From Oleispira sp. (lineage in GTDB: Bacteria > Pseudomonadota > Gammaproteobacteria > Pseudomonadales > Oceanobacteraceae), in NCBI GenBank assembly GCA_047616865.1, contig JBLGBO010000009.1, positions 72,076 through 136,075 on the forward strand: a stretch of DNA of 64,000 nt. Reading direction: 5' to 3'. Below, in pieces: positions 15,544-26,199 of the stretch. The position numbers and the translations under genes are program-made. The notes under the pieces were generated by a model. It saw only the letters and a list, made by a program, of their open reading frames with translations. It was not told where the DNA came from and did not search any database. The first letter of the stretch is position 1; every line of letters begins with the position of its first letter.

Positions 15544-16260
15544 CTACAGCAATATTTTCAGCGCCTCAATCACCGGAGGATTTTTCACAACCAGAGCATC
15601 CAATACAGGCTTATGCAAGCGGCGCTTATGCTCAGAAAAGATTCCTCTGTTCTTATTAAACGTTTTAGCAAACTCTAATGCACCTTCATTCAACGTATCG
15701 ACCGAATCAAATAAACGATCTATAAAATTCGCCTCCGCCATTTCTTCAGCACCCAACTTACGACCGGTTAAAATCATATCGTTGAACTTATACTGAGGAA
15801 TTGCTTTTAAAATCACATCAATAAGACCCGGTACAAAAGGGATATTCATATCAACTTCAGGGAAACAGATATAACCACGATCACGGCGCATAAAACGAAA
15901 ATCACACGCTGCCGCTATCACGATGCCATTGCCAAAAGTATGACCATTCATCGCCGCGATAATCGGCATAGGGTATTGCAACATCAAACTATAGACTTCA
16001 TCCATGGTTGTTAAAAAAGCTTTTACATCGTCTTTCTTGCCCCCCTGAATACTGCTCATCAACCACATAACATCAATCCCTTGGCTCCAGTTCTTTTCAT
16101 CGCTGGAGGCTAAGATTAACGCTTTGTTTGTTTTCACCTCTTCGACTTTTTTTAACAAAGCTAAAAGCTGCTGGGCAAATTCTAGATTATTGGCGTTCTT
16201 GCCATTATCCATGGAAATAACAGCAACCTTGCCTTCGTTGCGTAGACTCATTAAGGACAT
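15544..16260 (-). CDS. enoyl-CoA hydratase/isomerase (crotonase) family protein
   Basis: 238 aa with crotonase-fold motifs. Last gene of the atu-like operon. Confidence 0.8.
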   Translation of the reverse strand: MSLMSLRNEGKVAVISMDNGKNANNLEFAQQLLALLKKVEEVKTNKALILASSDEKNWSQGIDVMWLMSSIQGGKKDDVKAFLTTMDEVYSLMLQYPMPIIAAMNGHTFGNGIVIAAACDFRFMRRDRGYICFPEVDMNIPFVPGLIDVILKAIPQYKFNDMILTGRKLGAEEMAEANFIDRLFDSVDTLNEGALEFAKTFNKNRGIFSEHKRRLHKPVLDALVVKNPPVIEALKILL

Positions 16261-16300
16261 ACGAATTACTCTTTAAATAAATACTCAAAAGAAAAGACGT

Positions 16301-16461
16301 TCCACCACCGAGGCACAGAGCACATAGAGAAGAGCGGAGGAAAACTAATGGAAAACATAATACGACCGCACTGTATCAATAGAAATTTTTTCACTCTAAA
16401 TCTTCATGCTCTTCTTCGCTTTTCTCTGTGTAGCGAAGCGTCTCTGTGCCTCTGTGGTAAA
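16301..16461. repeat. palindromic MITE-like intergenic repeat (family 2, gtgcctctgtggtaaa / gcgaagcg arms)
   Basis: Inverted ~45-bp arms (ccaccaccgaggcacagagcac...gagcggagg / cttcttcgctttt...gtgcctctgtggtaaa) around a ~65-bp spacer. A related copy lies at 28511-28604. Confidence 0.5.
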
Positions 16462-16475
16462 TTTTTTTTCACTTT

Positions 16476-17360
16476 TTATTCGTCAACCAAACCCGCAAGT
16501 GGAGCCACAGTCCCACGCACATAAGCATCCGCATCCTGCACAAACAAGTCAGGCATTAAGTCTCTTTTATCACTCTCAGGATTGGCACGATACTGTTCAA
16601 AGTTTTCCACCCCTTGAGTACGTAAGAAATCTTCATCAATCAATAACTGCCCGGTAATTTCACGGTTCTCAGTTTTCAATAATGCAAACGCAGCATCCGC
16701 CATAATCTTAGGGCCACGAGCGCGATCAAAGGATTGCTTGCCACCAAAGGAAGTTGCCGCCGTATGAATAACAGTTCGAGGCCATAAGGCGTTTACTGCA
16801 ATACCATAGCGTTTAAATTCATCTGACATGCCCATGGTCAGCATCGACATACCATACTTGGTTAAGGTATACGGTGAGTGATTACGCAGCCAGCGACGAT
16901 CTAAATCTAATGGTGGAGAAAAACTTAAAATATGTCCGTTCTCAGACTTTTTCAGATAGGGTAATGCTTTCTGACTTAATAAAAATACGGCACGGAAATT
17001 CACCTGCATCATTAAATCAAGTTTTTTCAGGGGTGTTGATTCGACACCCGCCAAAGCAATCGCACCCGCATTATTAATAATTGCATCGATGCCACCAAAT
17101 TTTTCTACGGTTTTAGCAATCAAATTATCAATGTCTTCTTCACTGCGCACATCCACTTTAACCGCTAGACCTTGACCACCCGCTTCTTCAACTTCTTTAA
17201 CAACGGAATGAATTGTACCTTCCAGTTTTGGATGAGGCTGATCAGACTTAGCCGCGATCACAATGTTTGCGCCTTCGGCCGCACACGCCAAAGCTACTTC
17301 ACGACCAATACCGCGGCTAGCGCCTGTAATAATGATGGTTTTATTTTTCAATGAACTCAT
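16476..17360 (-). CDS. SDR-family NAD(P)-dependent oxidoreductase (AtuG-like)
   Basis: TGASRGIG Rossmann motif. 294 aa. Sits where AtuG lies relative to the biotin carboxylase subunit. Confidence 0.8.
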   Translation of the reverse strand: MSSLKNKTIIITGASRGIGREVALACAAEGANIVIAAKSDQPHPKLEGTIHSVVKEVEEAGGQGLAVKVDVRSEEDIDNLIAKTVEKFGGIDAIINNAGAIALAGVESTPLKKLDLMMQVNFRAVFLLSQKALPYLKKSENGHILSFSPPLDLDRRWLRNHSPYTLTKYGMSMLTMGMSDEFKRYGIAVNALWPRTVIHTAATSFGGKQSFDRARGPKIMADAAFALLKTENREITGQLLIDEDFLRTQGVENFEQYRANPESDKRDLMPDLFVQDADAYVRGTVAPLAGLVDE

Positions 17361-25422: not shown

Positions 25423-25468
25423 ATTCAGACCCTAAAAGACACACGAATAATTTCAATGACTGAAGAGT

Positions 25469-25486
25469 ACCAAGCAAGCGCTTGGT
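25469..25486. promoter_or_regulatory. candidate TetR (AtuR-like) operator palindrome in the divergent promoter region
   Basis: ACCAAGC-aagc-GCTTGGT contains the perfect 10-bp palindrome caagcgcttg (25475-25484). It lies between the divergent atuA-like and tetR genes. Confidence 0.3.
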
Positions 25487-25569
25487 TTGTAAAGTATCTG
25501 ATTCAATGGTATCTATATAATCAACGTACAAATGACAGCACACTACCCAGTATTGAGTACTTTTAACCT

Positions 25570-26199
25570 ATGGCCAAAAACATAATTCAGCCTTCCCCCA
25601 CTCATCAAGCATTGATCGATCAGGGCATCATCAACGCGCCAGACAGCGCTAAAGGTCGTTTATTACGGGCCGCCGCGATACTGTTTAAAGAAAAGGGTTA
25701 TGAACGCACAACCGTAAGAGATTTAGGCAAAGCCGTTGGCATTCAGTCGGGTAGCTTGTTTCATCATTACCCCAACAAAGAAGCCATCTTGCACGCGGTT
25801 ATGGAAGAAACCATCTTGCTCAATACCGAGCTAATGAAAGCTGCATTATCAAAAAGTCAAAAACCGGAAGATAAAGTACTGGCGCTGATTCAATGCGAAC
25901 TTGAATCCGTAATGGGGGAAACCGGAGCAGCGATGACAGTATTGGTGTATGAATGGCGTTCGCTCAACGAAGCCAGTCAGCAGCATATTTTGAAGCTACG
26001 CGACATTTATGAAGGTCTATGGATCAGCGCATTAACCGCCGCAAAAGAGTCAGGTTCGGTGGTGATAGACCCCTTCGTATTACGACGCTTATTGACCGGC
26101 GCATTGAGCTGGACCGTCAACTGGTATCGCCAAGAAGGCGATTTAACCATCGACCAACTCGCCCAAATGGCCCTTAGTCTCGCCATAAAGCCGCTTTAG
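25570..26199 (+). CDS. TetR/AcrR-family transcriptional repressor (AtuR/LiuR-like)
   Basis: HTH region TTVRDLGKAVGIQSGSLFHHYPNKEAIL. 209 aa, divergent from the catabolic operon. Confidence 0.85.
   Translation: MAKNIIQPSPTHQALIDQGIINAPDSAKGRLLRAAAILFKEKGYERTTVRDLGKAVGIQSGSLFHHYPNKEAILHAVMEETILLNTELMKAALSKSQKPEDKVLALIQCELESVMGETGAAMTVLVYEWRSLNEASQQHILKLRDIYEGLWISALTAAKESGSVVIDPFVLRRLLTGALSWTVNWYRQEGDLTIDQLAQMALSLAIKPL

Follow-up and report, generated by a model that had tools for sequence, protein, structure and literature searches.

In Pseudomonas, the lower part of the acyclic-terpene utilization (Atu) pathway proceeds by desaturation (AtuD), carboxylation (AtuC/AtuF) and hydration (AtuE), followed by a lyase reaction whose enzyme is encoded outside the cluster. 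Here, we analyze an atu-like gene cluster of the marine hydrocarbon degrader Oleispira, located at positions 15544-26199 of a 64,000-nucleotide stretch of contig JBLGBO010000009.1 (Oleispira sp., GenBank assembly GCA_047616865.1), referred to below as the 64-kb window. This cluster is an ordinary representative of the known Atu system and is present genus-wide in Oleispira. It is best read, with a probability of about 0.85, as an AtuR-controlled operon of the lower Atu pathway that would relieve the block imposed on beta-oxidation by a 3-methyl branch. We found no literature that links Oleispira with atu genes, geranyl-CoA or terpene use.

A related system is the leucine/isovalerate (Liu) pathway, which employs 3-methylcrotonyl-CoA carboxylase (MCC) in place of geranyl-CoA carboxylase (GCC). 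The GCC structure revealed that the active-site Phe of the MCC beta subunit (Phe191) follows a 3-residue insertion, whereas the GCC beta subunit has Gly and lacks the insertion; an extended N-terminal helix is also listed as a mark of GCC beta, and exchanging Gly and Phe exchanges the substrate preference between GCC and MCC (PMC4673880). The regulator of the pathway has been characterized in Pseudomonas sp. OST1909, where purified AtuR shifts promoter DNA in electrophoretic mobility shift assays and fatty and naphthenic acids block the binding; citronellic, decanoic and acyclic naphthenic acids act as inducers, whereas citronellol and geraniol do not (bioRxiv 10.1101/2025.09.24.678253).

Results

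Seven genes of the cluster correspond to Pseudomonas atu genes

All coordinates refer to the 64-kb window, with the minus and plus strands given as (-) and (+), and genes were called from a listing of open reading frames (ORFs) combined with Pfam and NCBIfam scans. The references were a complete atuR/atuABCDEFGH locus of Pseudomonas (L050) and a fragment from P. aeruginosa (L049); these were recovered by using the geranyl-CoA carboxylase beta sequence of P. aeruginosa, for which a structure is solved, as the query and retrieving the encoding contigs, and identities are those of BLASTP comparisons of the window proteins with L050 and L049. The first gene of the operon (23548-25422, -) encodes a 624-aa protein of the AtuA family (PF07287, 487.7 bits against a cut-off of 22.8; AtuA_ferredoxin, PF23544, 99 bits) that is 57% identical to Pseudomonas AtuA over 599 aa. 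It is followed on the same strand by homologues of atuC, encoding the predicted GCC beta subunit or carboxyltransferase (21932-23548; Carboxyl_trans; 71% identity to AtuC); atuD, encoding an acyl-CoA dehydrogenase of the citronellyl-CoA dehydrogenase type (20287-21444; Acyl-CoA_dh_N/M/1; 73% identity across all 385 aa); atuE, encoding a crotonase of the isohexenylglutaconyl-CoA hydratase type (19403-20239; ECH_1, 165 bits; 51-53% identity, in the syntenic position); atuF, encoding the predicted GCC alpha subunit or biotin carboxylase (17394-19406, with the ORF extending to GTG 19466; Biotin_carb_N/CPSase_L_D2/Biotin_carb_C/Biotin_lipoyl; 55-56% identity over the full length); and atuG, encoding a short-chain dehydrogenase/reductase (SDR) (16476-17360; adh_short; NCBIfam PRK08278 subfamily, 396 bits against a cut-off of 250; 60% identity to AtuG over 274 aa in two Pseudomonas loci). 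The last gene (15544-16260, -) encodes an additional crotonase of 238 aa, denoted ECH2 (ECH_1, 89.5 bits), for which BLASTP detects no counterpart in the Pseudomonas atu loci. A TetR-family repressor gene divergent from atuA (25570-26199, +; TetR_N and TetR_C_24) encodes a protein 60.5% identical to Pseudomonas AtuR over 195 aa.

A preliminary description of this DNA, made by eye from the sequence, had proposed the order AtuA, carboxyltransferase, acyl-CoA dehydrogenase, crotonase, biotin carboxylase/carrier protein, SDR and extra crotonase with a divergent TetR gene, and had likened it to the P. aeruginosa atu cluster. The ORF listing and the Pfam and NCBIfam scans bear out all of these gene calls at their coordinates, Pfam confirms the order, and, as judged from the BLASTP comparisons, seven of the genes are orthologous to atuR, atuA, atuC, atuD, atuE, atuF and atuG. 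The PF07287 match disposes of the caveat, raised in the same description, that the 624-aa protein might not belong to DUF1446/AtuA. The window AtuA matches a protein of an Oleispira sp. metagenome-assembled genome (MAG) with 100% identity, and its orthologue in O. antarctica RB-8, named terpene utilisation protein AtuA in UniRef, is 87% identical to it. A PDB sequence search found no solved-structure relatives of AtuA, and we know of no organism in which its biochemical role has been established.

Two of the junctions are compact. As described earlier, the atuA stop and the carboxyltransferase start overlap at 23548, with one shared base (TAATG), and an ATGA overlap joins atuE and atuF at 19403-19406; both would provide translational coupling and are counted in favor of the Atu operon. 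The second junction also bears on the start of the biotin carboxylase, which is most likely ATG 19406 (670 aa, 17394-19406) rather than GTG 19466, because the ORF aligns to AtuF only from residue 31 onward and because this ATG overlaps the atuE stop.

The carboxylase resembles GCC rather than MCC

When compared with all PDB sequences, the carboxyltransferase scores 872 bits with the P. aeruginosa GCC beta subunit (5ikl_B), 487 bits with P. aeruginosa MCC beta (3u9r_B) and 467 bits with human MCCB; its alignments with GCC and with MCC both begin at residue 1-4, and it is 48% identical to LiuB and 46-48% identical to MCC beta subunits. In the MAFFT alignment, the window protein has FVPG(162)AQAF, Pseudomonas AtuC has FVEGARGF, and all four MCC-type proteins have F(P/A)D(R/K)(E/D)HFGR, with the MCC sequence FPDREHFGRIFF standing opposite FVPGAQAF. 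Both marks of GCC, that is, the presence of Gly162 and the absence of the 3-residue insertion, are found in the window protein. The FVPGAQAF variant is shared by all Oceanospirillales-type proteins aligned, as opposed to FVEGARGF in Pseudomonas. A neighbor-joining tree was built from 473 ungapped columns of 4 MCC-type and 6 GCC-type sequences, the window protein included, with support given as bipartition frequencies; the split between GCC and MCC was recovered in 100 of 100 bootstrap replicates, and the window protein falls on the GCC side. The biotin carboxylase domain of the alpha subunit is 65-67% identical to AtuF (614-632 bits) versus 56% (467 bits) to P. aeruginosa MCC alpha/LiuD.

It is extremely improbable that the cluster encodes the leucine/isovalerate pathway with an MCC. 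The two pathways share the same set of domains (acyl-CoA dehydrogenase, carboxyltransferase, crotonase and biotin carboxylase), and GCC is weakly active on 3-methylcrotonyl-CoA (PMC4673880), but the Liu assignment is at odds with the presence of the AtuA gene, the lack of the MCC Phe and insertion in a beta subunit that belongs to the GCC clade, the greater similarity of the alpha subunit to AtuF than to LiuD, the TetR/AtuR-type regulator with its AtuR operator, and the lack of a gene for 3-hydroxy-3-methylglutaryl-CoA (HMG-CoA) lyase in the cluster. The preliminary description, which favored Atu over Liu, had proposed a phylogeny of the carboxyltransferase against AtuC, LiuB and MCC beta subunits as a check and had named clustering with LiuB/LiuD as the outcome that would overturn it; instead, both subunits group with AtuC/AtuF, and with AtuA also present, the Atu assignment holds. 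The AtuC/AtuF-like pair is thus probably a GCC-type carboxylase, and the cluster is probably functional. In the proteome table of RB-8, which was consulted for signs of a Liu/MCC pathway, only a second, unassigned carboxylase (OLEAN_C10480/C10490) is listed (PMC7318663).

A predicted AtuR operator separates atuA and atuR

The spacer between atuA and atuR is 147 bp long and contains a 24-bp imperfect inverted repeat, TACAAACCAAGCGCTTGCTTGGTA (25468-25491, minus-strand reading), which is identical in all 24 positions to the AtuR binding site reported for Pseudomonas sp. OST1909 (bioRxiv 10.1101/2025.09.24.678253). The 20-nt core of this predicted operator occurs once in the window, against 0.02 occurrences expected by chance, and is kept in the same spacer in RB-8, in a Saccharospirillaceae MAG, in Litoribrevibacter and, in two copies, in Pseudomonas. 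A search of the window found no second AtuR operator before atuD, the SDR gene or the acyl-CoA synthetase gene beyond rpsT. From these matches, the regulator is classified as AtuR-like, with an operator identical to the published AtuR site.

The SDR-ECH2 pair and the layout without atuB

To place ECH2, its homologues were searched for and the encoding contigs were fetched. The arrangement atuR/atuA-atuC-atuD-atuE-atuF-SDR-ECH2 was also found in the Saccharospirillaceae MAG (L052) and in Litoribrevibacter euphylliae (L053), both without atuB and in unrelated genomic contexts. The layout lacking atuB and carrying an extra crotonase thus recurs in other Oceanospirillales, and public genomes already contain examples of it outside Oleispira. 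In Marinobacter litoralis (L051, 9028-10717), an SDR and an ECH2 that are 87% and 76% identical to those of the window, respectively, are followed by a CoA-binding protein gene, and no other atu genes were found within the 10 kb retrieved on each side.

ECH2 occurs in Oleispira as two deeply diverged allele classes, with 67-73% and 84-91% identity to the window copy. The class that includes the window copy (with loci L006 and L010) groups with Marinobacter sequences with 100/100 support, whereas the SDR tree keeps Oleispira together, and this disagreement suggests that the 3' end of the operon has been exchanged. The closest relatives of ECH2 with solved structures are delta3,5-delta2,4-dienoyl-CoA isomerases (65 bits). 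Crotonase hydratases have a first catalytic Glu, at the position of which the isomerase has Asp. In the alignment, ECH2 has Val at this position and keeps the Glu of the PEVD motif, and because of this combination it is probably of the isomerase type rather than a simple hydratase.

Selection and expression

All atu ORFs of the window are intact and of full length relative to Pseudomonas, and the ratio of nonsynonymous to synonymous substitution rates (dN/dS) against O. antarctica RB-8 is 0.03-0.12 for all eight genes (0.044 for atuR and 0.031 for atuD), so that the cluster genes are under purifying selection. As a separate observation, dS against RB-8 is uneven along the cluster, at 0.33 for atuC and 0.22 for atuD versus 1.2-1.9 for atuR, atuA and ECH2, which suggests either homologous recombination within the cluster between Oleispira lineages or unusually strong constraint on atuC and atuD.

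Proteins detected in published proteomic work on RB-8 include the AtuA orthologue OLEAN_C05720 (625 aa) and the SDR OLEAN_C05770 (294 aa). The abundance of the SDR was 3.43 on Tween 80 versus 0.37 on tetradecane, an approximately 9-fold difference (P=0.0044), and that of AtuA peaked on Tween at 4 °C (PMC7318663 Table S2). The RB-8 locus tags (kdsA C05590, rpsT C05700, ileS C05830) agree with the gene order of the RB-8 locus (L045). A decaying, non-functional relic in an alkane-only organism would fit the narrow substrate range reported for Oleispira (PMC7318663) and the detection of only two RB-8 proteins at low counts, and the 487-bp repeat-bearing spacer between atuC and atuD could disturb co-transcription. 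We nevertheless regard decay as highly improbable, given the intact ORFs, the low dN/dS values, the perfectly conserved operator, the condition-dependent detection of RB-8 proteins from both ends of the operon, and the fact that no frameshifts were seen in 12 Oleispira loci.

An old insertion in a composite region

The region was compared across relatives by a scan with MurJ as the query, limited to one genome per species, which yielded 44 loci onto which the window proteins were mapped. In all 11 Oleispira-type loci (MurJ identity 91-95%), a gene for an RRM-domain RNA-binding protein (14531-14776, -, in the window; RRM_1) and the atu block lie directly upstream of murJ (12935-14485, -), which is followed by ribF-ileS-lspA-fkpB-ispH. 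O. antarctica RB-8 has the same TetR/AtuA...ECH2 arrangement adjoining rpsT and the synthetase gene, which brings the presence of the block at this site to 12 of 12 Oleispira loci (11 species representatives and RB-8). In about 25 genomes of the sister genera (Thalassolituus, Oceanobacter, Bacterioplanoides, Bacterioplanes and related MAGs; MurJ identity 70-80%), rpsT lies directly upstream of murJ and is co-directional with it, and the cluster is absent from the site. The RRM gene, found upstream of murJ in all Oleispira loci, is likewise absent there in the sister genera, where rpsT holds its position.

The sister genera share the contiguous run ispB / rplU-obg-proB-kdsA-like-rpsT-murJ-ribF-ileS-lspA-fkpB-ispH. 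The backbone is interrupted in the window by about 34.8 kb (14486-49244), between the start of murJ at 14485 and the end of the kdsA-like gene at 49245; this interval contains the RRM gene, the atu block, rpsT, the synthetase gene, EamA and LysR genes, a giant TSP3-repeat protein gene, RND efflux genes and an Rtc RNA-repair module. Within this stretch, rpsT (26379-26648, +; Ribosomal_S20p), which bounds the cluster but has no role in the pathway, is inverted with respect to its two ancestral neighbors; a single inversion of approximately 26200-49244 would restore it beside the kdsA-like gene. With its own near-consensus promoter (TTGACA-17-GATAAT, 26306-26334) and a perfect terminator hairpin (26706-26737), rpsT is predicted to be an independent transcription unit. 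Beyond it lies the acyl-CoA synthetase gene (26810-28498, +; AMP-binding), on the strand opposite to the atu genes; its adjacency to rpsT is kept in RB-8.

The preliminary description had placed the cluster at a conserved murJ-rpsT junction and interpreted it as a metabolic islet acquired with MITE-like repeats (miniature inverted-repeat transposable elements). The junction itself stands, since murJ and rpsT are adjacent without the cluster in the sister genera, but the interruption amounts to about 35 kb rather than 11 kb and includes an inverted rpsT, and it was therefore not produced by one clean insertion. The presence of the block in relatives, a comparison that the same description had suggested, argues against recent insertion: the block is found at this site in all 12 Oleispira loci, and any insertion therefore predates the genus. 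There is a genuine insertion relative to the sister genera, but its age is at least that of the genus, and it lies in a larger composite region rather than forming a clean 11-kb islet.

The repeats do not delimit the cluster either. The 487-bp atuC-atuD spacer contains two hairpins of about 118 nt (21534-21652 and 21766-21883) in opposite orientation, and a third copy lies at 50215-50330. A core of about 75 nt is conserved among the three copies, and the flanking stems are copy-specific yet still pair; folding compared with shuffled controls gives z values of -4.3 to -7.8, those of the pair in the spacer being -4.3 and -7.8. Across Oleispira species, the spacer can be as short as about 40-60 bp and as long as about 660 bp, and in other Oleispira the elements are absent from it or occur at other intergenic sites, with six places in locus L011. 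A separate 155-nt hairpin with 17-nt arms (16304-16458), unrelated in sequence to these elements, lies between the ECH2 and SDR genes; copies related to it occur in L005 and twice in L006. Thus, hairpin repeats are indeed present, as the mention of MITE-like repeats implied, but they belong to a family scattered through the genome, lie within the cluster and do not delimit it. In classical MITEs, the terminal repeats are conserved. The elements described here, with a conserved core and variable stems, show the reverse pattern, which might reflect insertion into existing hairpins such as terminators.

Taken together, a recently acquired, MITE-delimited mobile islet between murJ and rpsT is very unlikely. 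The absence of the cluster from the site in about 25 genomes of the sister genera, which have rpsT next to murJ, is compatible with such an islet, as are the occurrence of the same type of cluster in unrelated contexts in the Saccharospirillaceae MAG and Litoribrevibacter, the presence of hairpin repeats, and the two ECH2 allele classes, of which that of the window groups with Marinobacter. Against it stand, in addition to the genus-wide presence at the same site, the composite interruption and the inverted rpsT, several features of the sequence itself. The GC content of the cluster (0.447) equals that of backbone genes (0.446; 0.426 for the whole 35 kb), and its GC content at third codon positions is within the backbone range. 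No integrase or transposase was found among the window ORFs scanned against Pfam, some ORFs in the 14.4-49.2 kb region being outside the scan. The only tRNA-like gene (44828-44899) lies about 18.6 kb past the cluster end (26199) and at neither edge of 14486-49244. Finally, the repeats are internal, their positions vary between species, and one copy is 28 kb away. The claim of acquisition as a MITE-marked islet is accordingly not supported.

Other features of the region

The content of 14486-49244 varies among Oleispira lineages, and the junction has the appearance of a hot spot of gene gain. RB-8 has a GAF/histidine-kinase gene after ECH2 and appears to lack both the TSP3-repeat giant protein and the Rtc module. 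In the window, the former is a 1203-aa thrombospondin type 3 repeat protein (31804-35415), absent from the equivalent place in RB-8, and downstream of its gene lies an RND efflux operon (OEP, membrane-fusion protein and AcrB; 35957-41301). The Rtc RNA-repair module (42420-49171) consists of genes for RlaP, an SPFH/Band_7 protein, the tRNA-like gene, RtcA, RtcB and a divergent RtcR; judged by locus-tag spacing, it is absent from the corresponding RB-8 region. The tRNA-like gene of this module scores 51 bits with the Rfam tRNA model, and its anticodon is undeterminable. Between ribF and murJ, two ORFs of 381 and 363 aa (10352-12643), one of them with a sub-threshold DUF4785 match, recur in only three other Oleispira loci (L005, L006 and L010) and are absent in RB-8 by locus-tag spacing.

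The 767-bp gap between the RRM and ECH2 genes was considered as a possible remnant of the GAF/histidine-kinase gene that occupies this place in RB-8; nucleotide comparison instead identifies its RRM-proximal part of about 530 nt as conserved non-coding DNA in all Oleispira. This segment (14777-15320, upstream of the RRM gene in the minus-strand reading) is 74-84% conserved across 11 Oleispira species. Nowhere else in the 64-kb window are DnaA-box-like 9-mers clustered as they are here, with two boxes arranged head to head, TTATCCACA (14991-14999) and TGTGGATAT (15005-15013), and further boxes at 15107 and 15262; an invariant palindrome lies near 15170-15190. At least 7 Oleispira loci have similar DnaA-box clusters at the same place, and the loci of the sister genera have none there. 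A replication origin was considered and ruled out, as the GC skew keeps its sign nearby; the cluster might be a DnaA-titrating or DnaA-reactivating site, a DnaA-regulated promoter or part of a long 5' leader of the RRM gene.

Discussion

By analogy with Pseudomonas, the predicted enzymes can be arranged into a pathway. A 3-methyl-branched acyl-CoA would be converted by the AtuD-like dehydrogenase to a 3-methyl-2-enoyl-CoA of the geranyl-CoA type, the gamma-methyl group of which would be carboxylated by the AtuC/AtuF biotin carboxylase. The AtuE-like crotonase would hydrate the carboxylated product, and a lyase encoded elsewhere would free acetate, after which ordinary beta-oxidation would resume. 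The AtuG-like SDR and the single-Glu ECH2 may act as a dehydrogenase and isomerase/hydratase pair on unsaturated branched intermediates, and alcohol oxidation and CoA activation, the AtuB and AtuH roles, would be supplied by other genes. Expression would be controlled by the AtuR-like repressor at the single 24-bp operator between atuA and atuR, with release presumably caused by branched or medium-chain fatty acids. Candidate natural substrates are geranate, citronellate and other 3-methyl-branched (isoprenoid or acyclic naphthenic) acids.

Several observations weigh against assignment of the cluster to the lower Atu pathway. The AtuE-like protein scores 160 bits with the NCBIfam model of gamma-carboxygeranoyl-CoA hydratase (NF004227), against an equivalog cut-off of 426, and the generic crotonase model outscores it. 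No AtuB orthologue is present in the 64-kb window, the best match being the AtuG-like SDR at 25% identity, and a search with AtuH back against the window found no orthologue of that protein. Genes for HMG-CoA lyase and hydroxy-isohexenylglutaryl-CoA lyase, and Liu genes, were not found among the window ORFs scanned against Pfam. In RB-8, two of the seven proteins were detected, with low spectral counts (PMC7318663 Table S2), and Oleispira is described as a nearly exclusive user of aliphatic alkanes, with no growth of RB-8 on pristane (PMC7318663). The absence of atuB had already been recognized in the preliminary description and is upheld, with no SDR gene between atuA and atuC.

Two candidates for the missing genes were considered. 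The SDR was ruled out as a displaced AtuB, being 60% identical to AtuG versus 25% to AtuB, and the synthetase encoded beyond rpsT was ruled out as AtuH, because the two share 25% identity over 216 aa, or a third of the protein, and because the synthetase gene has no AtuR operator. The use of pristane and other isoprenoid alkanes as the role of the cluster was also weakened, by the lack of growth of RB-8 on pristane and by a proteomics paper on Alcanivorax grown on pristane that makes no mention of a carboxylase or an Atu protein.

The assignment to the Atu pathway might be refined with respect to the substrate. The enzymes could act on 3-methyl-branched acyl-CoAs other than those of monoterpenes, such as isoprenoid acids from phytol or oil, acyclic naphthenic acids, or shorter branched alkanoates arising from alkane oxidation, and we give this somewhat less than an even chance. 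Such substrates would suit a marine obligate hydrocarbon degrader whose cluster has neither atuB nor atuH, the putative genes for the alcohol-level and activation steps. In OST1909, moreover, the AtuR acting at the identical operator responds to citronellic, decanoic and acyclic naphthenic acids and not to the alcohols; levels of the RB-8 SDR are higher with the fatty-acid ester Tween 80 than with n-C14; and the residues beside Gly162 differ between the Oceanospirillales-type (FVPGAQAF) and Pseudomonas (FVEGARGF) proteins. On the other hand, the RB-8 growth data and the Alcanivorax study on pristane weigh against such a role, and 71% identity to a characterized geranyl-CoA carboxylase is compatible with unchanged specificity.

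A bolder proposal, which we consider rather unlikely, is that the cluster without atuB and atuH but with the SDR and a single-Glu crotonase represents a distinct marine version of the pathway for phytol-derived, isoprenoid or naphthenic 3-methyl acids, in which the SDR and crotonase would form a semi-independent two-gene module, found on its own in Marinobacter and passed between that genus and Oleispira. If true, this would provide a role for AtuG, the function of which is still unknown, and a wider substrate range for an "obligate" alkane degrader.

Apart from this proposal, assignment of the cluster to the Atu system provides a confident annotation for an Oleispira block that is publicly labelled mostly as "hypothetical protein", "DUF1446" or "propionyl-CoA carboxylase". 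A bacterium regarded as a near-exclusive consumer of linear alkanes keeps genes for the bypass of 3-methyl branches throughout the genus and under purifying selection, which suggests additional substrates, namely branched or isoprenoid acids and acyclic naphthenic acids, of relevance to the degradation of oil in cold water.

Comparison with known systems

The Liu cluster (liuRABCDE) with its MCC comprises the same enzyme families and a carboxylase of the same alpha6beta6-type lineage. The Oleispira cluster differs from it in lacking the MCC Phe and the REH-type 3-residue insertion, in the separate clade of its beta subunit (100/100), in the possession of AtuA, and in a regulator of the TetR family rather than the LiuR type; furthermore, no lyase gene is present among the Pfam-scanned ORFs of the window.

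A second known system is atuR-atuABCDEFGH of Pseudomonas aeruginosa and P. citronellolis. This system and the Oleispira cluster share the divergent TetR repressor, the order atuA, atuC, atuD, atuE, atuF, atuG on one strand with 51-73% identity per shared gene, a GCC-type beta subunit with Gly162, and the operator core ACCAAGCGCTTGCTTGGT. The Oleispira cluster is distinguished by the lack of atuB, in place of which atuA and atuC overlap by 1 nt, and of atuH, by the extra 238-aa crotonase gene after atuG, by one operator copy where the Pseudomonas locus has two, by the 487-bp repeat-bearing atuC-atuD spacer, and by its host, a marine obligate hydrocarbon degrader. The atuR/atuABCDEF locus of Pseudomonas sp. 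OST1909 has the same 24-bp site in the same divergent-promoter position; its ligand response and DNA binding were measured on the Pseudomonas protein only, and the Oleispira repressor, about 60% identical to a Pseudomonas AtuR, would by analogy be expected to respond to the same ligands.

Further relatives are the Oceanospirillales-type clusters of RB-8 (OLEAN_C05710-C05780), the Saccharospirillaceae MAG and L. euphylliae, which have the identical gene order, no atuB, a terminal SDR-crotonase pair and the conserved operator core, with carboxyltransferases that are 98%, 80% and 75% identical to that of the window, respectively; the RB-8 cluster differs from that of the window in the additional GAF/histidine-kinase gene after ECH2 and in a different ECH2 allele class.

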